Shown here in pieces: positions 21,816 to 37,481 of a stretch of 64,000 nucleotides of DNA. A program made the translations under genes and the position numbers. The notes beneath the pieces are model-generated. The model had not been told where the DNA came from. It saw only the letters and a program-made list of their open reading frames with translations, and ran no database searches. The stretch lies in IMG/VR virus record IMGVR_UViG_2939142107_000001, positions 1 to 64,000 of that record; one strand, given 5' to 3'. The DNA comes from a virus (lineage: Duplodnaviria > Heunggongvirae > Uroviricota > Caudoviricetes). Each line of letters begins with the position of its first letter. Position 1 is the first letter of the stretch.

Positions 21816-22171
21816 TGGCCAACAATAACGAAATTGATCCTTTGCTGACGCTGGAGTTATCCGGCGTAAAAACGTATGAGTCCCAGGAGGAGGCCTGGGG
21901 CGCTCGTTTATATGAGTGGCTAAACACTTATCAGGGTGAGGTATACGGAGATCCGTCATGGGGCAATGTTTTACCGCAGTTTAAACACGAACCGACCAAC
22001 TTGTCGCATGTTCAAATTGCGGTTGAGGCAATGCTGTTGCAAAAACTGACGGTAGATTTACCTGACATACCGATTTCTGGCTTGTCAGTAGCCGAGGGAG
22101 ATGCTTTTGATAAGTTGAAAATATCCATTCGTATCAGGGATATAACTATCACACAGGACGTGGTGCTATGA
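21812..22171 (+). CDS. pmgA: Baseplate wedge protein, gp25/GPW-like
   Basis: 119 aa with the pattern YQGEVYGDPSWGNVLPQFKHEP typical of gp25-like proteins. ATGA overlap with sit. Confidence 0.6.
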   Translation: MMANNNEIDPLLTLELSGVKTYESQEEAWGARLYEWLNTYQGEVYGDPSWGNVLPQFKHEPTNLSHVQIAVEAMLLQKLTVDLPDIPISGLSVAEGDAFDKLKISIRIRDITITQDVVL

Positions 22172-23601
22172 GTAAAACAACACCGACTAAAGACAGTATT
22201 CGTGCAGAGTTTGAAGAGCTTGTCGAGAAAGATTCATTCTGGTCGAAGTTTGTCGGCTCTCAATTTGTCTCGATGCTGACATTGTTTATTACCCAGATTG
22301 TCTACAGGTGCTTTCAGTATGCCGATGCGGCGCTGGCTGAAGGCTTTATATCGACCGCGACGCGGCGTTCCTCTATCCTGGCAGCGGCAGAAACGAATAG
22401 TTACGTTGGTACCAAGCCAACACCGTCATCGGGGATGATTGAGATCACCGCCACAAGTGAAGATGCCCCAGCGGTAATCCCCAAAAACATGCCTTTAATA
22501 TCTGACGACCAGTACCCTTACATGACTATGGATGTATGCAGGTTGGTTGACGGCACCGGTACGGTAGAAGTGGCACAGTTGGAAATCCAGGAGGTGACAT
22601 ATACCGTTACGGCAGCCAAAGAATTTCTGGAAGTCGTGTTATCAAAGGCTCTTACTGCTGTCTGCTATAAGCTGGAAGTATTCGTGACGACCGATGGTAA
22701 GACCACGCAGTGGTCTTCCAGCACTATGTTCCGGTTAGCCGGTAGTAAAAGCCAGGTCTACGTTGAGTTTTATAAACCATCCGAGCAGTTGGGGGTTCGA
22801 TTCGGCGATGGGCTAATTGGGCAAATACCGCCAGAAGGTTCGACAATTACGCTTAAGGTATGGTGCACCAACGGCGATATAACCCTGGTTGCTGGCCAAA
22901 ACCTGACGCCTGTCGATTCTGCGGCTAATTTAGCTAATTTGATTTCAGTTAAGACAACGACACCTATAACCGCAGGTACCGATGCTGAAACAACGGAGAT
23001 CACACGTAACCGTGCACAATATTACCTTGCCTATGATGATCAGGTCGTATGGGGCGGGGACTATACGTATTTTCTGGTTCGTAACATCCCGGGGCTGTCC
23101 TGGGTAAAGGCATGGGGCGAAGGCCAGCAAGAGAAATTAGATGGTGCTTATAATGTTCAGAATATCAATAAGATATTTATTTCAGGATGGCATCCAAATA
23201 AAAGCCAGTCAGAGCTTGAAGAAATGATCCTGACTGCCTTTAAGAAGGTACCGAATGAACTGAACAAGAAATTCTCTTATAAAGAGGTCAGAAAACTACC
23301 ATTTAAGATAACCATCACCGGGCGGATATCGGCAAGCCTGACTATTGAGAACGTGACTGATGAGTTGAAGTCGGCACTGGAAACAAAATTTGGGCGCGAC
23401 TCAAATTTCTTTGATCCGAACGGTGTCGGCAAGTACATCCTGATCAAGAAAAAAGACGTTTGGGCATTTATCGAAACGCTGGGTTATTTCCGCGACTTTT
23501 ATCTGGAATTTGTCGAGTGGAATGAGTCCAACGGCTTTTACGATTTCGTTTATCTGGATACAGAAAACTCCACCTTTAATATTTCGTATGAGGAGGAGTG
23601 A
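22168..23601 (+). CDS. bplA: Baseplate J-like protein
   Basis: 477 aa; overlapping start/stop with its neighbours; assigned by synteny. Confidence 0.6.
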   Translation: MSKTTPTKDSIRAEFEELVEKDSFWSKFVGSQFVSMLTLFITQIVYRCFQYADAALAEGFISTATRRSSILAAAETNSYVGTKPTPSSGMIEITATSEDAPAVIPKNMPLISDDQYPYMTMDVCRLVDGTGTVEVAQLEIQEVTYTVTAAKEFLEVVLSKALTAVCYKLEVFVTTDGKTTQWSSSTMFRLAGSKSQVYVEFYKPSEQLGVRFGDGLIGQIPPEGSTITLKVWCTNGDITLVAGQNLTPVDSAANLANLISVKTTTPITAGTDAETTEITRNRAQYYLAYDDQVVWGGDYTYFLVRNIPGLSWVKAWGEGQQEKLDGAYNVQNINKIFISGWHPNKSQSELEEMILTAFKKVPNELNKKFSYKEVRKLPFKITITGRISASLTIENVTDELKSALETKFGRDSNFFDPNGVGKYILIKKKDVWAFIETLGYFRDFYLEFVEWNESNGFYDFVYLDTENSTFNISYEEE

Positions 23602-24437
23602 TGCAACGTTCCTGGTTTAATAATCGGCTTACATCAGCTAAGCAAAAGTCATTGCTCTATAAATCATTGGCTGATTTGGTTCAGTCAATGATGGACACCT
23701 TTGTTGACCCATGGTTGGAGCGAATTACCAACCGGAAGTCTATTTTTTCCATGAGCAAGGAGGATCTGGAGACCAGGACAAATGAACTTGGCCAGTTCTT
23801 TACTATCAGAACCTCAAACTCATCTTCCGTTCCGATGTTGTTACAACAGCGGCTTGATGAGATTCACTTTAAGGGGACTGAACGCCCTATAAACCAGACA
23901 ATTTACCGCGAATTTAATGGTATTTCTGTTTTATGGGATCCGATATATGCACCGGTGGACCTTGAACGTCATCCCTATGGCACAGTTCTAATACCAGAAA
24001 GCACACTGGAAACTACCGGCGGCACATTCGGCGAGATGTTTCTGACTTCCAGAGGGATGATCAGTATTCCCATAAACGACCTGGCCCGGACAATGGGTAT
24101 TACTGGCACGATAGATCAGTCCGCAATTACAGAAGAAATTCTCAGAAAGTTTAATCAGTTCGTAAAGCCTCTACTGCCACTGCATATAGTGTTTGATGGG
24201 CTTACGCTCTATTTGTCGGTTGTTGTGAATGAACAGGCCGACATGATCACTTTGAACGAGATTTCTGATACCGAAAAAGCGTACTGCTGGTTTGAAACTT
24301 CGGATACAACTTCGCTTACTGGAGTTACGTCGATTAGCGCCCCGATCACCGCAACGCCTGGTGGCACTATTGTGAAAGCGACACCTACGTTTGATCGCAC
24401 ACGCGCAGATGATTTGTTGCTGGATAGCGACGCCTGA
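23598..24437 (+). CDS. 16: Baseplate/tail protein (gene 16)
   Basis: 279 aa; assigned by synteny. Confidence 0.55.
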   Translation: MMQRSWFNNRLTSAKQKSLLYKSLADLVQSMMDTFVDPWLERITNRKSIFSMSKEDLETRTNELGQFFTIRTSNSSSVPMLLQQRLDEIHFKGTERPINQTIYREFNGISVLWDPIYAPVDLERHPYGTVLIPESTLETTGGTFGEMFLTSRGMISIPINDLARTMGITGTIDQSAITEEILRKFNQFVKPLLPLHIVFDGLTLYLSVVVNEQADMITLNEISDTEKAYCWFETSDTTSLTGVTSISAPITATPGGTIVKATPTFDRTRADDLLLDSDA

Positions 24438-24465
24438 CAATCACCCCGTCCGCAGGGCGGGGTGA

Positions 24466-24485
24466 CAAGTTACTTCTCTTACAAT
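24466..24485 (+). promoter_or_regulatory. Candidate late promoter for the R-S-U operon
   Basis: CAAGTTACTTCTCTTACAAT resembles the AAGTGACTTT..-10 pattern seen upstream of genes 23 and lyz. Confidence 0.4.
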
Positions 24486-24515
24486 GAGGCTTCACAACAT
24501 TGATTAGGGAAAATC

Positions 24516-24950
24516 ATGTCTGACGTCTCAACAAACCTCTATAAGAGTCAGTTGTTGGACTATTACTATCAGCGGCGCGCTGAATCGTCCATTAACAAAG
24601 GCTCTCGATTTTTAATCAGCAAGGCCGTTTTCGGTACCAGTTCACTGGTTACTAAGAAAGGAGATGGCACTTATGAGATTGGAGAACTGCCAAAGGCTTT
24701 CGATCTGGCAGAACTGACCAGTAAATTTTGCACCATCAACCTCGTCCCAACCTACTCAGGCGGGATAATTACTGTCCGAATGGACCTTGATCAAAGCCAG
24801 TTGCAGAAAGGGAAAAACTACCCATTCAACACTCTGGTTGTTCTGGATAACGAGAACAAGCCAATCGCCATTATTTGTGTCCAGGAAGACTCGCTGTATG
24901 TGGGCAAAACATATACCGCAGTTATGGCCATAAACACGACTACAGCATAA
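24516..24950 (+). CDS. R: Tail fibre-associated protein R
   Basis: 144 aa, directly upstream of S. Confidence 0.65.
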   Translation: MSDVSTNLYKSQLLDYYYQRRAESSINKGSRFLISKAVFGTSSLVTKKGDGTYEIGELPKAFDLAELTSKFCTINLVPTYSGGIITVRMDLDQSQLQKGKNYPFNTLVVLDNENKPIAIICVQEDSLYVGKTYTAVMAINTTTA

Positions 24951-24961
24951 GGATATGCTTG

Positions 24962-27900
24962 ATGAATGACGTTACAGTTGTCACATCGGTTACTTACCCA
25001 TCACCCGAGTCGTTGGCTCTGGTGGCTGATGTGCAATACCACGAACCATATCTGTCAGCCGCGCTAAACCGAAAATTCAGGGGAATTGTTGACCCTGGAT
25101 TTTATGCCGGTTTTTTTCCTAAGCCTGGCGGTGGGATGAACCTGTTAATCACCTCAGTGGATGGTGATAAAACCGCTGGCGCGGCGTCAGTGAATATTGG
25201 TGAATTCTACCAGGTAACTATTCAGCAGCGTAAGGATATTTCTCTTGCACTTAGCGCAGGTAAGAAATATGCAATTGTGCTGAAGGGAAGATACCTCCTT
25301 GGAGAAGATTCTTATCAGGTTAATACCGCGTCACATATTCATGCGGCTGAATTTGTTGCCAGAACCTATACCGATTCATATCAGTTAGGAGATGGGGAAC
25401 TGCTTGTTTGTACGGTGAATATCCCTGCTGGCGTATCTGCTATTACTAAGGAAATGATAGATGTATCCGACCGCATCGATCTCGCGATAGGCATTGAAAT
25501 TTCCGACTCTGTAACCAGTACCAGAAGTGATGTCGCTGCAAGTTCGCTGGCGGTTAAAAAAGCCTACGATCTGGCTAAAAGCAAGTATACGGCGCAGGAT
25601 GCAAGCACAACACAAAAGGGATTAGTTCAGCTCAGTAGCGCAACTAACAGCGACAGCGAAACAATGGCGGCTACCCCTAAAGCCGTTAAGTCTGTAAAAG
25701 AGCTGGCTGATACCAAAGCGCCAATAGAAAGCCCGAGTCTGACAGGAACGCCAACCGCGCCGACGGCAGCGCAAGGTACAAACAGCACGCAGATCGCAAA
25801 TACAGCCTTTGTTAAGGCAGCTATAACGGCACTTATCAACGGTGCACCTGGCACACTGGATACGCTTAAAGAAATAGCTGCTGCGATCAATAACGACCCG
25901 AATTTCAGCACAACTATCAACAATGCTCTGGCTCTTAAAGCTCCTTTAGCAAGTCCTGCATTAACGGGAATACCTACTGCGCCTACCGCTGCACAGGGTA
26001 CGAATAACACGCAGATTGCTACGACCGCTTATGTAAGAGCTGCTATCTCTGCATTGGTCGGCTCATCACCTGAAGCTCTTGATACCCTGAATGAGCTTGC
26101 AGCAGCACTGGGCAATGACCCGAACTTTGCGACAACAATGACAAATGCGCTGGCAGGCAAACAGCCTCTGGATGCAACTTTAACCGCGCTTGCTGGTCTT
26201 GCGACAGGCGCAAATAAATTGCCGTACTTTACCGGTACAGACACTGTTTCCCAGACTGATTTAACGTCAGTCGGTCGCGATATCCTGGCTAAAACAAGCA
26301 CACTGGCTGTTATCCAATACCTTGGTTTAAGAGAAATCGGAACCAGCGGCGAAAAGATCCCCCTGTTGAGCACAGCTAATACCTGGAGTTCTCAACAGAC
26401 TTTCAAAGGTAAGACAGCGTTTTCAGCCGCTGCTACATTTAGTGCCGGGATAGCAGGAGCCATCGAGCCGGAAAAAATTGGCGACCAGACGGTTGATCTT
26501 AACAACCTGACCATCAGCTCAGATGTCGGGGCAATTAAATATTATTATTGTCCAACCTTTGGAGGTGGTGCAAATATCACCAACAAGCCTGACGGCGTAA
26601 ACGGTAACTTTTTGCTCCGTGTAGAGTCGACTCGCAAAGTTTCTGCTTCGGATTATGCGAACATGCAAACGCTGATCAGCAACGACACAAAACGTATATA
26701 CGTTCGCTTTGTTGTTAATGGAAGCTGGGCAGCGTGGAGTCAGGTTGTTGTTTCCGGATGGGGTCAGGATGTAAGTGTTAAGTCTCTTAGTGCCGTGGCT
26801 CTTAGTGGATCTTTGACAGGTAATGCATCCACCGCCACAAAACTGCAAACAGCACGCACAATCGGCGGAGTGTCGTTCGATGGTAGTGCCAATATCGACC
26901 TGCCGGGCGTGAATAAAGCAGGTAATCAGAGCACTACCGGCAATGCTGCAACCGCTACGAAACTGCAAACAGCCCGCACAATCAACGGTGTTAAGTTTGA
27001 TGGTTCTGCGAACATTTCGATACCAACAATTACGTCCAGAGGGCGTGTTACTGCGCTCACCGATACAACACAAGGTGCTGCTACTGGATTGCAGATGTAT
27101 GAGGCGTACAACAATAGCTACCCGACCGCGTATGGCAACGTATTGCACATGAAAGGTGCGAGTGCTGCTGGTGAGGGCGAGTTGCTTATTGGCTGGAGTG
27201 GTACGAGCGGTGCACATGCGCCGGTTTTCATTCGCTCCCGAAGAGATCACACTGATGCGGCATGGTCAGCGTGGGCGCAGGTATATACATCAAGGGACTC
27301 CATTCCTGGTGTGAATGCCACTGGCAATCAGAATACAACTGGCAATGCAGCAACTGCTACAAAACTACAGACGGCAAGAACTATCGGCGGAGTTAGCTTT
27401 GATGGTACTGCGAATATTAATTTACCTGGTGTTAACGTTGCGGGTAATCAGAATACATCCGGTAACGCGGCTACAGCGACCAAGTTACAAACCGCTAGAA
27501 CTATAAATGGGGTGTCGTTTGACGGTTCTAAAAACATTGAGCTAACTCCAAGGTCTATAGGCACGATCAACTCAATAACAATGTCTTTTAGTGGTGGTGC
27601 TGGATGGTTCAAGCTGGCAACTGTAACCATGCCACAGGCCAGTTCCGTGGTTTACATAAGCCTGATTGGTAGTTCTGGATATAATGTTAACTCCCCTATG
27701 CAGGCTGGTATATCTGAACTTGTTCTTCGTGCGGGAAATGGGAATCCAAAAGGTCTTACTGGTGCGTTATGGCGACGGACATCGGTTGGATTTACTAATT
27801 TTGCATGGGTGAATACATCCGGTGATACCTATGATGTTTATGTTGAAATAGGTAATTTCGCCACGGGTGTAAATATCCAGTGGGATTATACCAGTAACGC

Positions 27901-29662
27901 CAGCGTAACGATTCATACATCACCATCTTATACAGCGAATAAACCAACAGGCCTGACAGATGGAACTGTATATGTAATTTACAGTTCGCACATTAAACCG
28001 ACCGCCACGGATGTCGGCGCATTACCAATAACCGGAGGAAATCTCAACGGCGGTTTAACGGCTACTGGTGAGATCATTTCAAAATCGGCGAATGGTCTGC
28101 GTATTGCCTACGGAAACTACGGATTCTTTATCCGAAACGATGGTTCAAACACATATTTCATGTTGACCAATTCGGGTAACAGCCTGGGAACCTATAATAA
28201 TTTAAGGCCGCTTATCATTAACAATGCCAATGGTACTGTTACGATCGGTAATGGACTCAATGTTACTGGCGGCATCAATGGTAGTTTGAACGGTAATGCT
28301 GCAACTGCAACAAAACTGCAAACAGCACGCACAATAGGCGGAGTGTCATTCGATGGTAGTGCCAATATCGACCTGCCAGGTGTGAATAAAGCAGGTAATC
28401 AGAGCACTACTGGCAATGCTGCAACTGCAACAAAACTGCAAACAGCACGCACAATCGGCGGAGTGTCGTTCGATGGTAGTGCCAATATCGACCTGCCGGG
28501 CGTGAATAAAACAGGTAATCAGAGCACTACCGGTAATGCAGCTACGGCTACCAAATTGCTAACAGCGCGTACCATTAATGGGGTTTCATTTGACGGTTCT
28601 GCGAATATTTCACTGTCACCAGCAAATATTGGTTGCCCGGCATCTCCTACTGGTTGGTTAAAAACAGGTAATAACGGTGAGTCAATAACGACAGCTCAGT
28701 TAGTTACTTTGTTGCAAAATAATGGGGCATTCAATACGAAAGCATGGTTCGCTCGTTGTGCATGGTCGTATGCAACTAGTGCATCCATACCAGACAGTGA
28801 AACTGGTTGTGGCATTATTCCACTGGCGGGTGCTGTGATAGAAGTATTCAGCAATAATACCGACAATTACACTATTCGAATAACAACAGCCACGACGACA
28901 AGTGTCTCTGGTGCACTCACTAATGCGGAGTTTATCTATGTGTTTAACGTGTCTGGCAGCACAAGTTATTCACCTGGATGGCGCAGAGCGTATAACACTA
29001 AAAATAAACCTACTACTACTGACCTTGGCTTGAGCGATGAAAGTGGATACGTTGGGCGCCTGATAAGCACTAGGGTTTTCACGTCATCAGGTACGTACAT
29101 CCCGACGCCAGGAACAAAACGGCTCAGGGTCACAATAACGGGCGGCGGTGGCGGAGGGGGCGGCTGCAAGGCTACATCCAATAATGAAACGTTTTTCGGT
29201 GCTGGCGGTGGGGCCGGTGGAACAATAATTTCAATAATGACCCCGACACAGAATAGTTATCCAGTCACTATCGGCGCAGGTGGGGCCGGTGGTGTTAGTG
29301 CGACGAACGGCACCAGGGGCGGGAATAGCGTATTCGCATCGTTAATTGCTCCTGGTGGCGCAGGCGGCGGGAAAGTGGGTGTTACAAACACAAACGGCGG
29401 TAACGGAGGTGTGCCGAGTACTGGCGATATCCGCATCACTGGTGGAGATGGAGGCGACGGTCAGTCCGGAAATATCAGCGTCAGCGGTGAAGGCGGAACA
29501 TCGCACTGGGGCGGCGGTGGACGCGCAGGCGCTGGCGGTGGTGTTATCGGTAAAGCATATGGTTCAGGCGGAGGTGGCGCATACGATGCCGGTTATAGCG
29601 GAACCAGTATGACGGGCGGGAAAGGTGCTTCAGGGATTTGTATTATCGAGGAGTTTGCATAA
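24962..29662 (+). CDS. S: Tail fibre protein S, 1566 aa: P1-like constant N-terminal part fused to a very long mosaic distal part ending in a glycine-rich domain
   Basis: The ATG at 24962 (MNDVTVVTSVTYPSPE...) follows the R stop. Contains tail-fibre repeats (SP.LTG.PTAPTAAQGTN.TQIA.TA.V) and many GNAATATKLQTARTI.GV.FDGSANI units. The ORF track extends it upstream to 24875, overlapping R. Confidence 0.9.
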   Translation: MNDVTVVTSVTYPSPESLALVADVQYHEPYLSAALNRKFRGIVDPGFYAGFFPKPGGGMNLLITSVDGDKTAGAASVNIGEFYQVTIQQRKDISLALSAGKKYAIVLKGRYLLGEDSYQVNTASHIHAAEFVARTYTDSYQLGDGELLVCTVNIPAGVSAITKEMIDVSDRIDLAIGIEISDSVTSTRSDVAASSLAVKKAYDLAKSKYTAQDASTTQKGLVQLSSATNSDSETMAATPKAVKSVKELADTKAPIESPSLTGTPTAPTAAQGTNSTQIANTAFVKAAITALINGAPGTLDTLKEIAAAINNDPNFSTTINNALALKAPLASPALTGIPTAPTAAQGTNNTQIATTAYVRAAISALVGSSPEALDTLNELAAALGNDPNFATTMTNALAGKQPLDATLTALAGLATGANKLPYFTGTDTVSQTDLTSVGRDILAKTSTLAVIQYLGLREIGTSGEKIPLLSTANTWSSQQTFKGKTAFSAAATFSAGIAGAIEPEKIGDQTVDLNNLTISSDVGAIKYYYCPTFGGGANITNKPDGVNGNFLLRVESTRKVSASDYANMQTLISNDTKRIYVRFVVNGSWAAWSQVVVSGWGQDVSVKSLSAVALSGSLTGNASTATKLQTARTIGGVSFDGSANIDLPGVNKAGNQSTTGNAATATKLQTARTINGVKFDGSANISIPTITSRGRVTALTDTTQGAATGLQMYEAYNNSYPTAYGNVLHMKGASAAGEGELLIGWSGTSGAHAPVFIRSRRDHTDAAWSAWAQVYTSRDSIPGVNATGNQNTTGNAATATKLQTARTIGGVSFDGTANINLPGVNVAGNQNTSGNAATATKLQTARTINGVSFDGSKNIELTPRSIGTINSITMSFSGGAGWFKLATVTMPQASSVVYISLIGSSGYNVNSPMQAGISELVLRAGNGNPKGLTGALWRRTSVGFTNFAWVNTSGDTYDVYVEIGNFATGVNIQWDYTSNASVTIHTSPSYTANKPTGLTDGTVYVIYSSHIKPTATDVGALPITGGNLNGGLTATGEIISKSANGLRIAYGNYGFFIRNDGSNTYFMLTNSGNSLGTYNNLRPLIINNANGTVTIGNGLNVTGGINGSLNGNAATATKLQTARTIGGVSFDGSANIDLPGVNKAGNQSTTGNAATATKLQTARTIGGVSFDGSANIDLPGVNKTGNQSTTGNAATATKLLTARTINGVSFDGSANISLSPANIGCPASPTGWLKTGNNGESITTAQLVTLLQNNGAFNTKAWFARCAWSYATSASIPDSETGCGIIPLAGAVIEVFSNNTDNYTIRITTATTTSVSGALTNAEFIYVFNVSGSTSYSPGWRRAYNTKNKPTTTDLGLSDESGYVGRLISTRVFTSSGTYIPTPGTKRLRVTITGGGGGGGGCKATSNNETFFGAGGGAGGTIISIMTPTQNSYPVTIGAGGAGGVSATNGTRGGNSVFASLIAPGGAGGGKVGVTNTNGGNGGVPSTGDIRITGGDGGDGQSGNISVSGEGGTSHWGGGGRAGAGGGVIGKAYGSGGGGAYDAGYSGTSMTGGKGASGICIIEEFA
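26310..26335. other. cix/hix/gix-family 26-bp invertase crossover site (orphan cixL) at the constant/variable junction of S
   Basis: The reverse complement TTCTCTTAAACCAAGGTATTGGATAA resembles hixL TTCTTGAAAACCAAGGTTTTTGATAA. It encodes IQYLGLRE in S. Confidence 0.7.
26815..28620 (+). repeat. Dispersed and tandem ~120-bp coding repeats within S (about 8 or more units in three clusters near 26815-27010, 27315-27540 and 28290-28620)
   Basis: Near-identical DNA segments such as ...caaaactgcaaacagcacgcacaatcggcggagtgtcgttcgatggtagtgccaatatcgacctgccgggcgtgaataaa... at ~26835 and ~28435. Confidence 0.85.
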
Positions 29663-30072
29663 TGAATACGTCATATGCAGTTATTGAAAATGGGATGGTT
29701 GTGAATGTCATTGTCTGGGATGGCGAGGCTGAATTCACAGTGCCGGATAATCAGCAGCTCATTAATATTTCTGATATCAGTGAGCAGCCCGGAATCGGCT
29801 GGGTGTATTCAGACGGGGGATTTACTGCGCCACCCACTCCGGAACGTTCTCATGATGAACTGGTAGCTGACGCTGAACAGAAAAAAAAGTCGCTGATTGA
29901 TACCGCAATGGCTTCCATTAGTCTTATTCAACTGAAATTACAGGCCGGACGGAATCTTACGCAGGCTGAAACCACCCGTCTTAACGCTGTGTTGGATTAT
30001 ATCGATGCGGTGACCGCAACGGATACCAGCACTGCACCAGATGTCAATTGGCCAGCGTTCCCGGAGGCGTAG
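29662..30072 (+). CDS. U: Tail fibre assembly chaperone U (Tfa family)
   Basis: 136 aa; TAATG overlap with S. Tfa-like sequence MNTSYAVIENGMVVNVIVWDG... Confidence 0.8.
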   Translation: MNTSYAVIENGMVVNVIVWDGEAEFTVPDNQQLINISDISEQPGIGWVYSDGGFTAPPTPERSHDELVADAEQKKKSLIDTAMASISLIQLKLQAGRNLTQAETTRLNAVLDYIDAVTATDTSTAPDVNWPAFPEA

Positions 30073-30149
30073 CCCATTAAAAAAATATCTGGAGCGCTGG
30101 AAGTAACGACTGGTTCCAGTGCATCCAGATAAGATGATTACTGTTCATG

Positions 30150-30363
30150 CTTCAAGAGCGAGCGCATACTGCATCCAGGCCAATCTAACTTTCATTCGAC
30201 CAGAGTGTCACCTCTCAAAAGCATTTTTTAACTCTGGTCGTTCAGCCTTTTTGCCGCTCGCCTTATCCTCAAAAATTAGCTCACATCCTGCGCTTTCAAG
30301 GGCATTTCGTTGCTAAGCAGTGTTTTGTTCATTTGTTGATACGCGTACATAGCCTATTAGCAT
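30150..30363 (-). pseudogene. cin: cin DNA invertase pseudogene: N-terminal remnant only, with multiple lesions
   Basis: Minus-strand translation from the ATG at 30363 reads MLIGYVRVSTNEQNTA*QRNALESAGCELIFEDKASGKKAERPELKNAFER*. After a frameshift it reads GDTLVE*KLDWPGCSMRSL. The serine-recombinase catalytic motif is present, but there is an amber stop at codon 17, a frameshift, an opal stop, and loss of the 3' two thirds. The lower boundary is approximate. Confidence 0.85.
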
Positions 30364-30490
30364 ATTTTCTACTCACTATCGTTATTTATAGCAAGCTGCG
30401 GATTTTGATTAACAGAAACCAGTGTGTGTGGAAATCACAAAGTGCATACCGTGCCCCAATGATGTTTTATTGAAAAGCGGGGGTACTTTA

Positions 30491-30772
30491 ATGTTTGATT
30501 TAACAATATTTTTTATAACCATCCTTGGAGGCGTGCATTCGTTTCTGAATGGGGTTCGTGAAAAACGTTACGAAGCGTCATGCAGGCAATTGATGGCCGA
30601 GTGTATTGCTGCCGTACTTGCAGGCTTTATAGGCATGTATTTCGCGGAATATAAGGGTATGGATGAAAGTCTTCAGAATTGCGTGACTATTATTTGCAGC
30701 ATCAATAACAAGCTCATTCTTGAAAAGTCACAAAGGATTATCGATTCGTACCTCAATAGAAATGCCTCTTAA
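30491..30772 (+). CDS. Holin-like membrane protein, paralogue of LydA
   Basis: ILGGVHSFLNGVREKR...IAAVLAGFIGMYFAEYKG aligns by eye with LydA VIGGIGTFLMDVRDGR...FVAVTAGAVAYLLGQHEG. ATG at 30491 follows a G-rich RBS; the ORF is open from 30422. Confidence 0.6.
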   Translation: MFDLTIFFITILGGVHSFLNGVREKRYEASCRQLMAECIAAVLAGFIGMYFAEYKGMDESLQNCVTIICSINNKLILEKSQRIIDSYLNRNAS

Positions 30773-30789
30773 GCAACAAATGACCGGTT

Positions 30790-30811
30790 GAGAAGTTACT
30801 TTGCATACCAT
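30790..30811 (+). promoter_or_regulatory. Candidate late promoter of the lydA-darA operon
   Basis: GAGAAGTTACTTTGCATACCAT resembles the other late-promoter elements in this window. The -10 is weak. Confidence 0.35.
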
Positions 30812-30839
30812 TACCTCCTGACAACGTAGGAGGGAACTT

Positions 30840-31169
30840 GTGCTTGACACACAGGAATTAGCTCCAGTTGCTATTGCGTTCCTGCTTTCAGTAATTGGTG
30901 GGATAGGCACGTTCCTGATGGATGTCCGAGACGGTCGCCAGTCTGGCAATTTGTTGGGATTGGTTACGGAGATCTTTGTTGCAGTGACAGCTGGCGCGGT
31001 GGCGTACCTATTGGGGCAACACGAGGGCTGGGAGTTATCAATTACGTACTTAATGGTAACGATAGCCAGCAATAACGGTCATGAGGTGATTTCAGGGATG
31101 AAACGAGTGAATATCGATAGCATTCTGAATGTTCTTACAAGTTTGGTGAAAAAGGGAGGCGGGAAATGA
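30840..31169 (+). CDS. lydA: Holin LydA
   Basis: 109 aa; GTG start after GGAGGGAAC; recognised as P1 LydA with three hydrophobic segments. Confidence 0.85.
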   Translation: MLDTQELAPVAIAFLLSVIGGIGTFLMDVRDGRQSGNLLGLVTEIFVAVTAGAVAYLLGQHEGWELSITYLMVTIASNNGHEVISGMKRVNIDSILNVLTSLVKKGGGK

Positions 31170-31609
31170 TTGGCTGGGGTGTATGCGTTCTTGCGTTAGC
31201 CTTAGCCGATCGCTGTTTGCTAAAACGCAAGGACATCACGCATTTAGAACTTGGTGATGTGGAAATTAAACCGGGTTTCATCCGAGTGCCGTTCAAATAC
31301 CGGTCTAAATTCCCGTTTTTGCGCGGCGCAACGGTCAGATATTGGATCCGCGATGTTCAGAAGCCGACGACAGTGATTGAAGGCGAACAACGTTGTCTGA
31401 CGTCGGCTGAACAGGGCGAAAACAGTGAATGGTTGTACATACCCACTGAATATATGGGTATAGGAGATCGACTGTGGCATTTCAACGTCATGGTTACGCA
31501 TGGCGACTCGTTCATTAACCCGTTGTATCGGATTTTCCCTGTTACTCAGCAAATCCGCAGAAGTTACGTAATAAATCTCGCACAGGATGTGTCAGATGAC
31601 GAAAAATAA
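31166..31609 (+). CDS. lydB: Antiholin LydB
   Basis: 147 aa; ATGA overlap with lydA; assigned by synteny. Confidence 0.8.
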   Translation: MIGWGVCVLALALADRCLLKRKDITHLELGDVEIKPGFIRVPFKYRSKFPFLRGATVRYWIRDVQKPTTVIEGEQRCLTSAEQGENSEWLYIPTEYMGIGDRLWHFNVMVTHGDSFINPLYRIFPVTQQIRRSYVINLAQDVSDDEK

Positions 31610-32198
31610 GTATGCAACGGTCGATTTTGACCAGGTTAATGAAAAGGGGCTGAAATCCCTTATCGCGGCGATCAATAAAACCGGGGTTACGGTAATTGAG
31701 GTTGACTCCAGCAACCGCGCAACAACGAAAGATGGCGTTAAAGTTAAAACCGCAAAGCTGGTTCTTAACGACGGACAAATTCTTGCCATACAGGTAAACG
31801 ATACTGGCGATATATCGTCTGTGAAACTGAATGGAAAAGCTATTCCTAACGCTCAGTCGCCGGATATCAAGACGCTTGGTACCGTCATGGGACAAGCGGC
31901 CCGCAAAAACTCCGCAAAATTCCAGAAATCACTGATCGCCAAAGCGAAGCGTGTTGCCAATCCGGTAGACAAGAAACCGGCAGTTAAATCCAACTTTCAG
32001 CGCCTGCAAGAAGCAAAACAGCGGAATGCTCAGGTGGTTGCCGCTTATAAGTCCGCGCAGAATTCGGTGTCTTTCAATCAACAGCAGATCACTGATTTGC
32101 GGGCGAAGCTGGATAAGGAGACGGGCCGACTCAATAACGAAAAGGCACGGAATGGCGAACTCAAACGTCGTCTTAAGCAACTGAAAGCAGGAAATTAA
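31596..32198 (+). CDS. hdf: Hdf (Dar system/head-size accessory protein)
   Basis: 200 aa from MTKNKYATVDF; immediately upstream of darA. Confidence 0.65.
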   Translation: MTKNKYATVDFDQVNEKGLKSLIAAINKTGVTVIEVDSSNRATTKDGVKVKTAKLVLNDGQILAIQVNDTGDISSVKLNGKAIPNAQSPDIKTLGTVMGQAARKNSAKFQKSLIAKAKRVANPVDKKPAVKSNFQRLQEAKQRNAQVVAAYKSAQNSVSFNQQQITDLRAKLDKETGRLNNEKARNGELKRRLKQLKAGN

Positions 32199-32199
32199 C

Positions 32200-34119
32200 A
32201 TGGAACAGTTCAATATCAATAAAGGGGTGACGATCAAGCCCGGGCTTGACGTGCTTCCCCCGCCAGTGACTGATGATGAATATCGCGCATTAATGGCCGG
32301 TGAGGACCGCTATCTGATGACGGAATCCAATACCCTGGAGGAAATCGAGGCTACGTTCTTCTATGACACGCCGATCCACTGGTGTGCTACGGATTTACTG
32401 GAGGCGATTAGTTCTACTCGTTTGCAGTTACACCGGACCATGCAGGCATTTGTCCGGGCATTGAACCAGAAGCTGAATGGTACCGGAATCTCTGCGGGGA
32501 GTGATAAAACGGGGGATGTGGCCCAGAACGGTGCACGCGCGATCGGCGGTGCTGAAATTGGCCGGGCACGTAACGTTAACGGGCTGCCGGTCCTGCCAGC
32601 CATTATTCCGCTCAGTGATGGTCAGACTATCAGCATTTTGTTTCATAGCCCGACAGCGGAAAACCGGATCACCAATAGCGATACGCTGGTTGCTTTCCAG
32701 TTCTTACTGAATAAAAAAGACGTTACTCACACCGTTGCTCCGATGAGTGGACGTGATATGACGCTGGCGCAGGTCACCATGAAACTTGCCAACCTTGCAG
32801 AGAAAAACTCGGCAAAATTCCAGCGTGCGCAGAAGAAGAAAAAAGCCCTGGTTGATGAAATAACCCAACTACAGGCTGACAGTGACCAGAAAGAGGATGC
32901 CATGAGCGACCTCGCGGATCAGGTGGCAGCGGTAGAAGGCCAGAAGGCAGATCTGGAGCAGAAAATTAACGCGGTTGCTTCGGAAGCGGATTCTCTTTAT
33001 CAAGAAAATGAGCGTTTGCAGGCGGAGATTGATCAGCTCAATCGTACTGGTGGGCGCGATACCATTGCTCCAGCGGGGATGACTGGTGGGCACTCTCGCG
33101 CGCTAACGGATCGCCTTGCCAGTATCAAAAATCGTATGCATATGGACGGGGAAGCGACGCTCAGTAATGGTGCATCAATGAAGCAATTCATTGGGGATGG
33201 CGAAGGGTATATCCAGTTAACCGATCCGGATGGCAGCGTATACATGATCAAGGCTAAATCCATACAGGGTGTGGACATGGCAGATGCGATCGGCAAGCTG
33301 TTTAAAGCCTATAAAGCGGGTAATGTATCGGAATATTTGGTCCAGCCAGAAGAACATAAACCAGAAAACGTCGAACCTGAACCAGCGGAGGATACCGGTA
33401 GCTCTTCGCCTGAACCAGAAGTCTCTGTAGGTGCATATCGATATGCCCTGCAAATGCGTCCGGCGGCCCCTGGCGCGATACCTGAAGGTAACAAAGCAAT
33501 TCTTCCGCGCCCTGATGAAGGTGACCCGTATTATGAATATGCACGCTACGGCATTGCTACTTACGATACCCCGCTTTCTGATCAGCAAATGAGTGAGTAC
33601 GACCTGAAGTTATTGCCTCGCGAGGATTCTTTCGACTTCCTGGCGAAGACACTTACTAATGGTCCGTTTGGCAAATATGCACAAAAAGCTCTGGAGCTAG
33701 CCACCAGCTCACCAGACGAGTTCCGCGTAATGCTGAAAACTCAGTTTCAAAAAACTTTCCCCAATATTGCGTTTCCAGGGGGCGCTGGCATCGAGAAAAT
33801 GGTGCAGAGCATGATCAATGCATTGCAGGCCGAAGTCGGTGAGATTACTCAACCAGAACCGGTCCCGGCACAGCCTGATGAAACGGTTAGCGAAGCAGAT
33901 GCAGAGGCTAATAAAGCCATTGAATATCTCAATAGCGTGATGGATATGCAAAGCACTGACATGGCGGAGATCCGTAACGCCCGGGGTAATGTCCGGGAAG
34001 CGATTGCAGCCCTTCAGGCTGCCGGGCGTTTTGAGGAAAACGAAGAGCTGGTTAATGGCGCAGCTCGCCACCTGGCTGATCTGCTGGTAGCAATCCAGAA
34101 AGCGGGGGTAGCGGCATGA
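32200..34119 (+). CDS. darA: DarA, internal head protein of the Dar antirestriction system
   Basis: 639 aa. Size and position match P1 darA. Confidence 0.85.
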   Translation: MEQFNINKGVTIKPGLDVLPPPVTDDEYRALMAGEDRYLMTESNTLEEIEATFFYDTPIHWCATDLLEAISSTRLQLHRTMQAFVRALNQKLNGTGISAGSDKTGDVAQNGARAIGGAEIGRARNVNGLPVLPAIIPLSDGQTISILFHSPTAENRITNSDTLVAFQFLLNKKDVTHTVAPMSGRDMTLAQVTMKLANLAEKNSAKFQRAQKKKKALVDEITQLQADSDQKEDAMSDLADQVAAVEGQKADLEQKINAVASEADSLYQENERLQAEIDQLNRTGGRDTIAPAGMTGGHSRALTDRLASIKNRMHMDGEATLSNGASMKQFIGDGEGYIQLTDPDGSVYMIKAKSIQGVDMADAIGKLFKAYKAGNVSEYLVQPEEHKPENVEPEPAEDTGSSSPEPEVSVGAYRYALQMRPAAPGAIPEGNKAILPRPDEGDPYYEYARYGIATYDTPLSDQQMSEYDLKLLPREDSFDFLAKTLTNGPFGKYAQKALELATSSPDEFRVMLKTQFQKTFPNIAFPGGAGIEKMVQSMINALQAEVGEITQPEPVPAQPDETVSEADAEANKAIEYLNSVMDMQSTDMAEIRNARGNVREAIAALQAAGRFEENEELVNGAARHLADLLVAIQKAGVAA

Positions 34120-34481
34120 CACTATCAGCTATTGAGTTAATGGACCTCAGCGACAAGTTGGATTCTCTGATGTCCAAAGCTGCTACCGCGAGTGGCATGG
34201 AGTTGCTGGATATCAGCGATGAAATTGACCAGATCATGCAACAGATGGGGTACGGCGCGTCCGGCGGCGGTAGTGGCGAGGAAAAACAACCTTCGGTACA
34301 TGATGGTGTGCCAAAACTGGTTGCTGATTTCCTGGCTGATAAATTCGTCGATCAGAGCACCGATGCATTTATCGGTACGTTGCAGGACTTGAGTCAATAT
34401 GTTGGCACATACATCGATCTGGACCAGGTTAAACAGCACACGGCGGCATGGATAGCCGCCAACATTAAAGAGGCAGCATAA
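34116..34481 (+). CDS. ddrA: DdrA
   Basis: 121 aa; ATGA overlap with darA. Confidence 0.7.
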   Translation: MTLSAIELMDLSDKLDSLMSKAATASGMELLDISDEIDQIMQQMGYGASGGGSGEEKQPSVHDGVPKLVADFLADKFVDQSTDAFIGTLQDLSQYVGTYIDLDQVKQHTAAWIAANIKEAA

Positions 34482-34493
34482 GGCGTAACAGGG

Positions 34494-37481
34494 ATGAGCT
34501 TAAGCGATCAGGTGGTAATGGCCACCAGCATAGAAACGCTGATCGAGCTGCTAAAAAACCTGCCCAATTACGGGCGGGTTTCGTATGTGGTGACAGCGAA
34601 GGGAGACGAGGTAAAAACAGCGTTTGATATCGTCGATGCCTCAGCTCTTTTGGTATCCAATACTCTGGACGGGAAAATTAACCCTGACTATCCCCAGGAA
34701 CTTCAGCCGCGCGACCGGACCCGCGCATCCAATCTTCTTCAGGTCAACCAGATATCCAAGGATTTGCGTCCTGCCCAGCTTACCGATTCCGGTTTATCCA
34801 GCCATGGCGCGCCGATAATTGGTGAGGACAATGCCGTTGAGTCAGGTAATGGACGGACCATGGGGATCATCAAAGCCTATCAGGACGGCAATGCGGATCG
34901 GTATCGTGAGTACCTGATTGATCATGCGACCGAATTCGGCATACGACCTGAAAAGGTTGAATCAATGGCGGCTCCGGTACTGGTGCGCCGACGGTTAACT
35001 AAGGTTGACCGCGTTCAGTTTGCCAAGGACTCAAATATTTCTGATCTTCAGGAAATGGCAGCCAGTGAAAAGGCTTTTGTTGATGCTGACAGCATAACTC
35101 CGGCGATGATGGCGCTGTTTAACCCATCAGAAAGTGGAGATCTGCTTAGCCGCAGTAATGACGCGTTTATTCGCGGATTCATGACGCAAGTTGGTGCCAC
35201 ACAGGCTGCTGGCCTTGTAACGGAAGATGGGCGACCAACACGGCAACTTGTAGACCGTATACAAAACGCGATCTTTGCCAAGGCATATAAGGATGCGCGC
35301 CTGGTAAGGATGGTTGCAGAAGAACCTGATCCGGATATGCGTAATGTTCTGACGGCGCTTAATGCGGCAGCCAATGATTTTGTCCAGATGCAGGCTTTGT
35401 CAGGAGAAGCGCACAAGCAGGCTGTGACAACTATTGTTGATGGCATTGAGACAGCGGATAGCCTCGATAAAAAGGCGCTGGCGGCATTGAAAGATGCGGT
35501 AGACCTGGTAAGGCAATCGAAGGAGTCAGGCCAGCATATTACCGATGTTATTGCTCAGGGGGATATGTTCAGCGAAACGGCCCCGGAAGTGAAAGCACTC
35601 GCGTTGTTTATCGTCGCGAATAACCGTAGCGCGAAGCGTATGGCCACCGCCTTTAAGTTGATGGCGCAACGTATCAATGATGAGTTACAGCACCAGGGCC
35701 AGGCGCTCGGGGATATGTTTGGCGGCGGCGATGTGTCGTTACAGGATATCCTTCGCCAGGTGTCTCAGGAACTGGAAAACGAAGGCATGCAAGGGATATC
35801 CGGCGGTCTTTTCGAGTCCGTTTCCGGCGGTAGCTACAACGGTGTTGCTCCGTATACCAGTTTGCTATTACATCGGGCATCCGGCATCAAAGACATTATT
35901 CATCTGATCAGGCTGCTTTCCCGCACAGATCCCCAGGATGAACAGCTTGTACAAGTGCTTGCGCATTTTGTTCGAATGCCTGTTGCCGACGTGAAAAAAT
36001 GGTGCCGATTATTCGGTATCAGCAATTCGTTACTTCGCGGCTTGTTAAATCACGCATCCTCCCTTGGGCGCGATGGCTTTGATGAGATAGCGCAGGCGAT
36101 AAAAAACGGAGATATGCCACCAGCTATTGACTGGTTTTCCATTCGCCCAACCAGGGTGAAAGCATTCCTTAGCGCGGCGCATACGGCATCACCATTGGCA
36201 GAAATGGTTCAGAGGCTGTCGCTCATATTCACAGATCATACCGCGTTGGGTGATCTGACTCTTGACGAGATGAAAGAAGCATCCATTCAGTGGGCCGATC
36301 AACAAAATGAGGTTAACTCTGACTTCTTGCCAGCATTCAGGAAGGCCGTTAGTAAAGCGGATGATGCCCGTGGAATTCTGAAGGCATTTAAGGCATTGCA
36401 AAGTCGGGTTAATAAACATGTCGGTGATATCGATGGGGTAACGGCGGAAGGCAGGGATATCCTTAAAGAGCACGGCATAACGCCAGAGTTTATTGATGAG
36501 ATCAGGACTGATATGCAGCGTGAGGTCGTATCGTCCCTGCAAATCGTAGCCAGAGCGTTGGCGGATGCTAATCCGAAGAGTGCGGCCATTGTTAACCAGG
36601 TTATTGGTGATATTGAAGCATCGGAGGGCATGGGGGCGCTGAAACTCTTCCTTTCGCGAGCGTTTAATCCTAACGGCAATATTCTCCCTGGCATTATTGG
36701 TGAGGCTAAAAAGTATGTCAGCGAAGAAGAACTTGAGCATCTTGACCAACTACTTAAGCGATTCTCATATAACCCGCAGACACGCTGGCAAATGAATCAG
36801 CGAAGTATGGGTTCGGTCCACGAGAAAGTGTTATCTGCCATGAACAGTGCGATCGCCAACTCATCCGTATCTGAAGAAAAAGCTCTTGAGTGGGCCGACT
36901 CTTTTATCACGGAAGAAGTGGAAGAAGCCCGCGCTGGACAGAATGGTGGGATAAACCTGCGCAAGGAACTTGCTGATATTTATCGCCTGACTGGCGGGAA
37001 AATATCGACCTTATCAAAGGTGGTTCACCACCAGGGAAGGGCATATGCAAATCTAAATGGTGTTGTTGCTGTCAATTTGAACGATGAAAATGCAAGAGCA
37101 CTGTGGCACGAGCTGGGTCATCATCTTGAGTACAGTAACCCCGGTTTGTTAGAGAAAGCCCGGTCATTCCTGAAGGCCAATGTTGAAGGGGGTAAGCTAT
37201 CTTTCGTCAATATCGGTGGGCGTGGCAAGCCTGAATGGTGCTTCAGATCTCGATTGAGTAATATTTATATGGCGAAGGTATACCCGCCAGTCTCAGTGAG
37301 TAACTCCGGGAAAATTCGGCAGAAATCACCGACTATTTCCAAAACGTCAGCAACGGAAGTATTCTCTATGGCTCTTCAGTTGTATCATGACAAAGAGGCC
37401 GCTGCCGCATCACTGATGAATGGTGACGGATTGCTGGAACTGTTATTAGGTGTGGCAAAGGAGCTAAATAATGCAGATTAA
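34494..37481 (+). CDS. ddrB: DdrB, large Dar-operon head protein
   Basis: 995 aa; assigned by synteny. Confidence 0.75.
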   Translation: MSLSDQVVMATSIETLIELLKNLPNYGRVSYVVTAKGDEVKTAFDIVDASALLVSNTLDGKINPDYPQELQPRDRTRASNLLQVNQISKDLRPAQLTDSGLSSHGAPIIGEDNAVESGNGRTMGIIKAYQDGNADRYREYLIDHATEFGIRPEKVESMAAPVLVRRRLTKVDRVQFAKDSNISDLQEMAASEKAFVDADSITPAMMALFNPSESGDLLSRSNDAFIRGFMTQVGATQAAGLVTEDGRPTRQLVDRIQNAIFAKAYKDARLVRMVAEEPDPDMRNVLTALNAAANDFVQMQALSGEAHKQAVTTIVDGIETADSLDKKALAALKDAVDLVRQSKESGQHITDVIAQGDMFSETAPEVKALALFIVANNRSAKRMATAFKLMAQRINDELQHQGQALGDMFGGGDVSLQDILRQVSQELENEGMQGISGGLFESVSGGSYNGVAPYTSLLLHRASGIKDIIHLIRLLSRTDPQDEQLVQVLAHFVRMPVADVKKWCRLFGISNSLLRGLLNHASSLGRDGFDEIAQAIKNGDMPPAIDWFSIRPTRVKAFLSAAHTASPLAEMVQRLSLIFTDHTALGDLTLDEMKEASIQWADQQNEVNSDFLPAFRKAVSKADDARGILKAFKALQSRVNKHVGDIDGVTAEGRDILKEHGITPEFIDEIRTDMQREVVSSLQIVARALADANPKSAAIVNQVIGDIEASEGMGALKLFLSRAFNPNGNILPGIIGEAKKYVSEEELEHLDQLLKRFSYNPQTRWQMNQRSMGSVHEKVLSAMNSAIANSSVSEEKALEWADSFITEEVEEARAGQNGGINLRKELADIYRLTGGKISTLSKVVHHQGRAYANLNGVVAVNLNDENARALWHELGHHLEYSNPGLLEKARSFLKANVEGGKLSFVNIGGRGKPEWCFRSRLSNIYMAKVYPPVSVSNSGKIRQKSPTISKTSATEVFSMALQLYHDKEAAAASLMNGDGLLELLLGVAKELNNAD

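Follow-up and report, generated by a model that had tools for sequence, protein, structure and literature searches.

A 1566-residue modular tail fibre of a P1-like phage-plasmid, with a glycine-rich tip and without the Cin inversion switch

Does a long phage tail fibre carry several receptor-binding tips in series, or is it one long shaft with a single tip? The question is raised by a gene at positions 24962-29662 of a 64,000-nucleotide (nt) stretch of DNA from a member of the Caudoviricetes (IMG/VR record IMGVR_UViG_2939142107_000001, positions 1 to 64,000), which we call the window. An earlier note on this DNA had proposed that the fibre stacks receptor-binding modules instead of alternating them by inversion. 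We think it likely that the fibre is instead a long fibre of the P1 type, whose shaft and knob modules are joined by repeat units (R), whose tip derives from a cassette, and which no longer undergoes inversion.

The gene (24962..29662, stop included; features are on the + strand unless stated otherwise) is an open reading frame (ORF) of 1566 codons without an internal stop. As judged from sequence, it is gene S of a P1-like phage-plasmid of Escherichia coli, because it lies in the gene layout of P1 and because its constant N-terminal part (Sc) has 96% amino acid (aa) identity to that of P1 S. The order of genes is a sit-like gene, baseplate genes, R, S, U, (cin), and lydC/lydA/lydB, so that both the Sc homology and the R-S-U operon position of a P1-type S are found. 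Nucleotides 1-1448 of S are 93.6% identical to P1 S, and both proteins begin with MNDVTVV. Gene R (24516..24950; 144 aa), at the P1 R position upstream of S in the tail-fibre operon, is annotated in the records as gpR or as a phage tail protein.

The 4701-nt S region is present, with 100% identity and at the same coordinates, in plasmids such as pCARB35_01 (NZ_CP031654.1; 89,643 bp), whose host is an E. coli from a dog wound. The gene (at least 80% of its length, at 99-100% identity) is in 37 of 5426 complete E. coli genomes and in 11 PLSDB plasmids, and the exact 1566-aa protein is on 91 contigs of a public collection. We therefore rule out an assembly artefact, as many independent complete assemblies are identical. 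Clinical isolates from humans in several countries repeatedly contain this plasmid family (SUISSEKPC3NDM5, AR437, and MRSN wound isolates from Ukraine and Germany); one isolate is from a dog, and the host records include wound and urine isolates.

S is much longer than P1 S, as the earlier note had said, with about 1000 aa for P1 S: in our comparison P1 S has 987 aa. The P1-like S proteins that we sampled have 987, 1035, 1060, 1100, 1110, 1149, 1245, 1366, 1394, 1554 or 1566 aa. The S of the window is the longest of these, yet it is part of a continuum of lengths. It is a long example of a known and highly modular class of tail fibre, its glycine-rich tip and its chaperone likewise belong to known types, and the protein is already in the databases, often mis-annotated.

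The RefSeq/PGAP annotations of this locus vary. In NZ_CP031654.1, NZ_CP158325.1 and others, the intact 1566-aa S is flagged as an "incomplete" pseudogene; alternatively, S is split into a "tail fiber protein" and a "glycine-rich domain-containing protein". The full-length chaperone U is said to be "missing N-terminus". Such annotation fragments account for many public proteins of 400-1150 aa from the S locus.

We divided S into modules. Sc (aa 1-450; 24962..26311), which is proximal to the baseplate, is 94-96% identical to P1 Sc and contains Pfam Phage_fiber_2 repeats. Next are module B (aa 451-612; 26312..26797), repeat units R1-R2 (aa 613-692; 26798..27037), module D (aa 693-786; 27038..27319), R3-R4 (aa 787-866; 27320..27559), F (aa 867-1008; 27560..27985), G (aa 1009-1103; 27986..28270), R5-R7 (aa 1104-1218; 28271..28615), I (aa 1219-1365; 28616..29056), and J (aa 1366-1566; 29057..29659). 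The seven R units have the motif GNAATATKLQTARTI(G/N)GV(S/K)FDGSANI and a period of 40 aa. With the pattern G[NS]A[AS]TATKL[QL]TARTI[GN]GV[SK]FDG[ST][AK]NI, we found them starting at aa 620 and 660, at 794 and 834, and at 1111, 1151, and 1191. These clusters of 2, 2, and 3 units are the three that the earlier note had described, and the globular stretches that it quoted between them are present, except that it missed a fourth, module B (which ends in ...NGSWAAWSQVVV). It had also called the protein a mosaic, which is supported.

Modules G and I have clear relatives. G matches Pfam Gp34_trimer (E = 3e-28), a gp34-type collar or beta-prism with flanking beta-helix, and a search of PDB by sequence links it to residues 265-339 of Mu S (5yvq) and to residues 1014-1117 of T4 gp34 (4uxe/5nxf/9x3r). 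I is a homologue of residues 186-331 of Mu S' (8ju3; E = 6e-24, or 1e-25 with a profile). For D and F, profile searches of PDB found nothing significant. The model of D predicts a five- to six-stranded antiparallel sheet like that of known knobs, and by structure comparison its predicted fold matches the knobs of gp34, Mu, and R2-pyocin, so D is probably a knob or beta-prism domain. F is beta-rich, has no Pfam or PDB match by sequence, and is usually followed by G in its relatives. B is globular and likewise has no Pfam family or PDB sequence match; its profile search gave antibody hits at chance level and the R1 pyocin fibre at E = 8. (RefSeq names relatives that contain B and lack D "pyocin knob domain-containing protein".) Both B and F match PHROG tail-fibre families at internal positions. 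When we scanned the modules separately against Pfam, there was no family for B, D, F, I, or the R clusters, just chance-level matches to Gln-synt_N (R clusters) and PorB (I). An NCBIfam scan of the S, U, and R proteins gave zero matches.

If the internal globular modules were tips, we might expect to find them at the ends of other fibres. We mapped the modules on 386 related proteins and on the S genes of the loci that we fetched, and we considered a module to be terminal if it was within 30 residues of the C-terminus. B was terminal in 0 of 22 relatives and D in 0 of 110. F was terminal in 3 cases, every one of them a record that is flagged as partial, and G in 8 cases, mostly records flagged as partial. 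I was terminal in 17 cases, while J was terminal in all of its relatives (103/103). The order in P1 S is Sc-R-D-R-...-G-tip. Because B and D are never terminal, and because P1 S already has this order, the globular segments inside S are shaft modules of the ordinary kind for this class of fibre. J alone is obligatory at the C-terminus; I is ambiguous. R, D, and G are already present in P1 S, so the 1566-aa architecture extends the P1 norm and is no departure from it. The proposal that the internal segments are distal receptor-binding tips is thus mostly not supported: it fails for B and D by position, it fails for F and G in that they are terminal almost only in partial records, and for D and G their likely identities also speak against it (D resembles the knob or beta-prism of T4 gp34 and R-pyocin shafts, and G is a Gp34_trimer domain related to Mu S 265-339).

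A 651-aa side fibre (P0104; locus L017, 5001-6956) illustrates how these modules are arranged elsewhere. It is encoded downstream of a GpJ-type central fibre gene in a siphovirus-type, phage-plasmid-like contig. One of its two I-type domains is internal and 85% identical to module I; the other, at the C-terminus, is divergent (39%), and R units and Gp34_trimer lie between the two. This fibre is among the 17 cases in which I was terminal.

The strongest rival explanation is that S is a polyvalent adhesin, in which several of B, D, F, and I bind receptors or glycans along the fibre. Stacking would then replace the Cin switch and would serve for several hosts or surface layers (for instance, O-antigen first and an outer-membrane protein or the lipopolysaccharide core last). 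Knob-like domains are indeed seen in fibres and tailspikes that bind saccharides. For R pyocins, it has been suggested that knobs serve as secondary sites of saccharide binding, among them knob 2, which is ~100 Å from the tip (Buth et al., PMC6116203); in R1 and R2 pyocins, knob 2 is one of the two most variable regions (PMC6116203). D is among the more variable modules between variants of S (76-98% identity), and the siphovirus-type fibre described above ends in a divergent I-type domain. But B and D are terminal in 0 of their 132 occurrences, and the same knob fold decorates T4 gp34, the proximal half-fibre, which is distant from the receptor. Also, P1 S has R-D-R...G and nevertheless depends on the exchange of its Sv and Sv' tips for host range. 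Since knob 2 of R pyocins is a proposed second binding site, we keep accessory binding as a rival, and we consider it unlikely.

If the fibre has one tip, it is most likely J, judging from the following matches. J was described in the note as a distinct Gly-rich terminal domain, and this description holds. Glycine makes up 35% of aa 1390-1566 (the last 177 residues, from nt 29129) and 10% of the rest of S, and J matches Gly_rich_2 (PF21722) with 46.9 bits (cut-off 24.3; E = 4.5e-12) over profile positions 2-224 of 226. J is collinear from end to end with residues 80-275 of gp24 of the cyanophage Pam3, and this segment of gp24 itself passes the Gly_rich_2 cut-off (26 bits). In Pam3, the distal TNF-like and glycine-rich domain of gp24 is held to recognise the host, is embraced by a chaperone, and is similar to S16 gp38 and ALK (PMC9608196). 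J is at the C-terminus of S, and directly downstream is the gene for the cognate chaperone, U (29662..30072; 136 aa), whose start overlaps the S stop (TAATG). U belongs to the tail-fibre assembly chaperones (Pfam Caudo_TAP, PF02413; E = 7e-22).

Where did this tip come from? U is 28% identical to P1 U, and it is 87% identical over its full length to a chaperone of P2-like prophages (136 vs. 137 aa). The I+J region has 94-100% aa identity to fibres of 659 aa that are encoded by P2-like prophages in E. coli chromosomes. These fibres have a P2-type N-terminus (Pfam Phage_tail_fib), and the 659-aa fibre gene is followed by a 137-aa Caudo_TAP gene. At the nucleotide level, 28626-30062 of the window (1437 nt, comprising I, J, and nearly all of U) is 92.8% identical to the H-like fibre and chaperone genes of a P2-like prophage, and the fibre protein that is shared with P2-like prophages is 99% identical over 344 aa. 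By these identities, I, J, and U form a mobile cassette that is common to P1-like and P2-like phages.

J itself varies among near-identical plasmids. When we compared the window to L013, L016, L003, L005, L007, and L010, the aa differences clustered between the glycine motifs (for example, TIISIMTPTQNSY vs. TVIVTLTLTKDSY; another is VSATNGTRGGNSVFASLI). The J of L013 has the look of a mosaic between the type of the window and that of L016. This variation could reflect diversification of the tip or gene conversion.

The inversion switch of P1 is lost. The window has a site at 26313..26335 (TCCAATACCTTGGTTTAAGAGAA) that is identical to P1 cixR, which confirms the cix-type junction that the note had placed here. 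This site is an orphan: it occurs once in the window (chance expectation, 0). Homology to P1 ends at 26409, past cixR and the flanking conserved segment, and restarts at 30163 within cin (at about its nt 212). What remains of cin, on the - strand at 30163..30363, is the first ~67 codons of the invertase gene (P1 homology covers cin nt 1-212), and RefSeq annotates it as a recombinase pseudogene. We found no second cix site (cixL) in the window, no Sv' or U' among its ORFs, and no inverted repeats within 24000-36000. In other words, the window has neither an intact cin nor two inverted cix sites flanking Sv/U and Sv'/U', which would make up an invertible C segment. The note's statement that the fibre stacks receptor-binding modules and does not alternate them by inversion is therefore partly right: inversion is lost (cin is cut, and cixL, Sv', and U' are absent), while the stacked tips are mostly unsupported.

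The same cin junction is present in every relative with the Gly-rich tip that we examined (L003, L004, L005, L007, and L013-L016). One ancestral event would fit this, with the cassette replacing the old tip through the middle of cin. Between the stop of U and the cin remnant lie 90 nt (30073-30162) that have no match in either P1 or the P2-like prophage. P1-like plasmids in which cin is truncated and the C segment is lost have been described before (PMC6906374).

Recombination at the R units is supported as well. The note had pointed to nearly identical DNA, over about 100 bp, in two of the clusters, and had suggested that recombination between the copies could delete or swap the ~1.6-kb module between them. 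The repeat is indeed there: 81 bp are exact (26837..26917, within R1, and 28430..28510, within R6), followed by one mismatch and ~19 more matches. We built the product that is expected from a crossover between the 81-bp copies and searched for it in complete genomes, and it is present in six of them. For example, S of pMRSN23713_p1 (NZ_CP158349.1) has 3108 nt, which is 4701 minus 1593, and remains in frame (1035 aa). Its first 2211 nt match the S of the window with 0 mismatches, it is flanked by the same proteins, and sister plasmids from the same collection have the long form of S. The two copies of the repeat are the left and right ends of this natural 1593-bp indel, which supports the note's suggestion.

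Relatives with other module orders and repeat numbers support it as well. Orders elsewhere in P1-like S include R-R-F-G-R-D-R-R-R-I-J, B-RRR-D-RR-F-G-RRRRR-J, and G-R-D-RR-I-J. Two plasmids with divergent Sc share the same short variable part, and one of them has an extra 120-nt unit. The boundaries of large blocks of homology are mostly within R clusters or at the cix-proximal boundary. The DNA of R1, R5, and R6 is mutually 83-84% identical, while other pairs of units are 54-73% identical with almost equal peptides. (R3 and R4, in cluster 2, have 54-72% nt identity to the other units despite near-equal protein sequence.) When aa 451-1218 served as the query of a full search, 5839 clusters (50% identity) were recovered, of which 560 were at E ≤ 1e-30. 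Among the top 150 clusters, proteins have up to 2751 aa and up to 15 R units, and 38 have at least 7. A full-text literature search with the R motif string found no papers.

The short form also bears on whether internal modules bind receptors. Every long variant that we examined has lost inversion, as would be expected if stacking compensated for the switch. But the short natural variant has lost inversion too, so stacking and the loss of the switch are not tied to each other. Furthermore, this variant lacks D, F, and G, retains the tip and chaperone, and persists in several genomes.

Returning to the single-tip fibre, we propose the following build. The S fibre would presumably be a homotrimer, with Sc (aa 1-450) attaching it to the baseplate. 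The variable part would be one continuous shaft, in which R units (probably turns of a triple beta-helix) alternate with wider, compact domains: B and D (of the knob or beta-prism type), F, and G (the collar of T4 gp34 and Mu S). The distal end would be I+J, with J as a TNF-like and polyglycine domain of the Gly_rich_2 family, and U, encoded directly downstream, most likely folds J. I, J, and U probably arrived jointly, and their acquisition most likely replaced the old Sv tip, U, U', Sv', cixL, and most of cin, so that the fibre became fixed in one form and Cin switching was lost. The R units would provide in-frame homology at which recombination, possibly RecA-dependent, adds, removes, and permutes shaft modules, so that fibre length and knob content vary among near-identical plasmids.

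Several points weigh against this explanation. I-type domains are C-terminal in some fibres, and a binding site has been proposed in R-pyocin knob 2 (PMC6116203), so J may not be the sole binding site. The link between J and Pam3 consists of a weak pairwise E-value (0.04-0.1) and shared Pfam membership, and when we searched PDB with a profile of I+J, the match to Pam3 was no longer recovered. An AlphaFold 2 model of aa 1104-1566 (R5-R7, I, and J; from an alignment of 20 sequences) was unusable, with a predicted local distance difference test (pLDDT) score of 30. The probable fold of R comes from a likeness to the C-terminal beta-helix segment of phage L Dec, which was the only match of an R cluster in PDB and was not significant (E = 0.09). 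R is probably a shaft linker of triple beta-helix turns. B and F lack structural relatives that are detectable by sequence, and the alignment of B to D with hhalign is weak (24% probability, confined to the C-terminal W..W motif). Finally, the 1593-bp difference may be a deletion or an insertion, as it could have occurred in either direction.

A broader role for R is conceivable, although we think it improbable. The R unit might also be a conserved adapter for in-frame recombination, with homogenisation or divergence of its codons setting which swaps are frequent, and phages of the P1, P2, Mu, and lambdoid types might permute knobs through it. Some knobs would then be accessory glycan sites, and long fibres would be truly multivalent, which would offset the loss of inversion.

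The last rival, that the long S arose by accidental recombination in a defective prophage that makes no infectious particles, is very unlikely: PGAP calls S "incomplete" and cin frameshifted and has U as "missing N-terminus", the truncation of cin is genuine, and damage to the tail-fibre operon has been described in P1-like plasmids (PMC6906374), but S is an uninterrupted 4701-nt ORF that is 99-100% conserved in 37 complete genomes and recurs on 91 contigs, variants differ in frame by whole modules or whole 120-nt units, U is full length relative to its true relatives (136 vs. 137 aa, 87% identity), and the adjoining tail, baseplate, and lysis genes are intact. We reject the pseudogene reading of S and U. 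As U is full length compared to its true relatives, the pseudogene flags are artefacts of comparison to shorter reference proteins.

Two other genes that we came across deserve mention. For the gene at 22168-23601 of the window, the records disagree: RefSeq has "bleomycin hydrolase", NZ_CP029365 has "baseplate protein", and the phage record MH422554 has "baseplate wedge tail fiber connector (T4-like gp9)". The first of these names is probably mistaken. And in a P2-like prophage (L010, 2700-3500; GCA_014753155.1), a 266-aa gene with a TIR_2 domain lies between the P2 tail genes S and V. This gene is present in 2 of 3 P2-like prophage loci, is absent from the third, and resembles an inserted cargo gene.

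P1-like phage-plasmids carry resistance genes between clinical E. coli, and gene S sets their host range. The S locus shows cleanly, in nature, how a fibre's length and modules change through recombination at a short protein repeat. It is also an example of a tip and chaperone cassette that moves between P1-like and P2-like phages while destroying the Cin switch. The near-isogenic long and short variants are a ready-made pair for asking what the shaft knobs contribute to adsorption, and the R units are practical junctions for engineering chimeric P1 fibres. Meanwhile, annotation pipelines treat S, which is intact, and its chaperone as pseudogenes or break them into pieces.

How does this fibre compare to the closest known systems? 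The S proteins of P1 and P7, with their Cin-invertible C segment, share the operon position R-S-U, an Sc that is 94-96% identical, and an identical cixR, and P1 S already has R units, a D-type knob, and a G-type collar. Unlike them, the S of the window has 1566 rather than 987 aa, as it adds modules B, F, and I along with further R units. It has a Gly_rich_2 tip and another chaperone (28% identical to P1 U). The locus has a truncated cin, lacks cixL, Sv', and U', and does not invert.

Fibre H and its chaperone in P2-like prophages of E. coli (the 659-aa protein with Phage_tail_fib, Phage_fiber_2, and Gly_rich_2) share the distal I+J and the downstream chaperone as one block. However, the N-terminal half of that fibre is the P2 collar and shaft rather than P1 Sc, and it lacks B, D, F, G, and the R clusters upstream of I.

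The minimal fibre and chaperone of Pam3 (gp24 and gp25) resemble J and U in the Gly_rich_2 domain, its C-terminal position, and the adjoining chaperone gene. They also share collinear GGGGxGG stretches and a C-terminal beta-strand (...GIxIIEEF/GIIIVQYF), and the glycine content is 35% here and 39% within gp24's glycine-rich domain (PMC9608196). On the other hand, pairwise similarity is weak (E = 0.04-0.1), and J caps a fibre of more than 1300 residues, whereas the Pam3 fibre has 280 aa. The gp38 adhesins of T-even phages are more distant: gp38 is a separate monomeric protein, while here the Gly-rich domain is fused to the fibre chain. Pfam GP38, by which we would recognise a gp38 adhesin, has no match in S.

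The Mu S and S' fibres (PDB 5yvq and 8ju3) are related in the shaft, in that G is ~80% identical to Mu S 265-339 and I is homologous to Mu S' 186-331. They differ in being about 500 aa long and in having other tips. Mu retains its Gin inversion switch.

Finally, the C-terminal region of T4 gp34 matches G by sequence (residues 1014-1117), and in both gp34 and the R1 and R2 pyocin fibres, slender linkers alternate with wider domains, and the model of D matches the knob folds of gp34, Mu, and R2-pyocin by structure. In contrast to those fibres, the linker here is a specific 40-aa R unit without a Pfam family, and there are more modules per chain. The pyocin knob and gp34-distal domains have been described as "mobile pseudo-domains" of tail fibres (PMC12143355).

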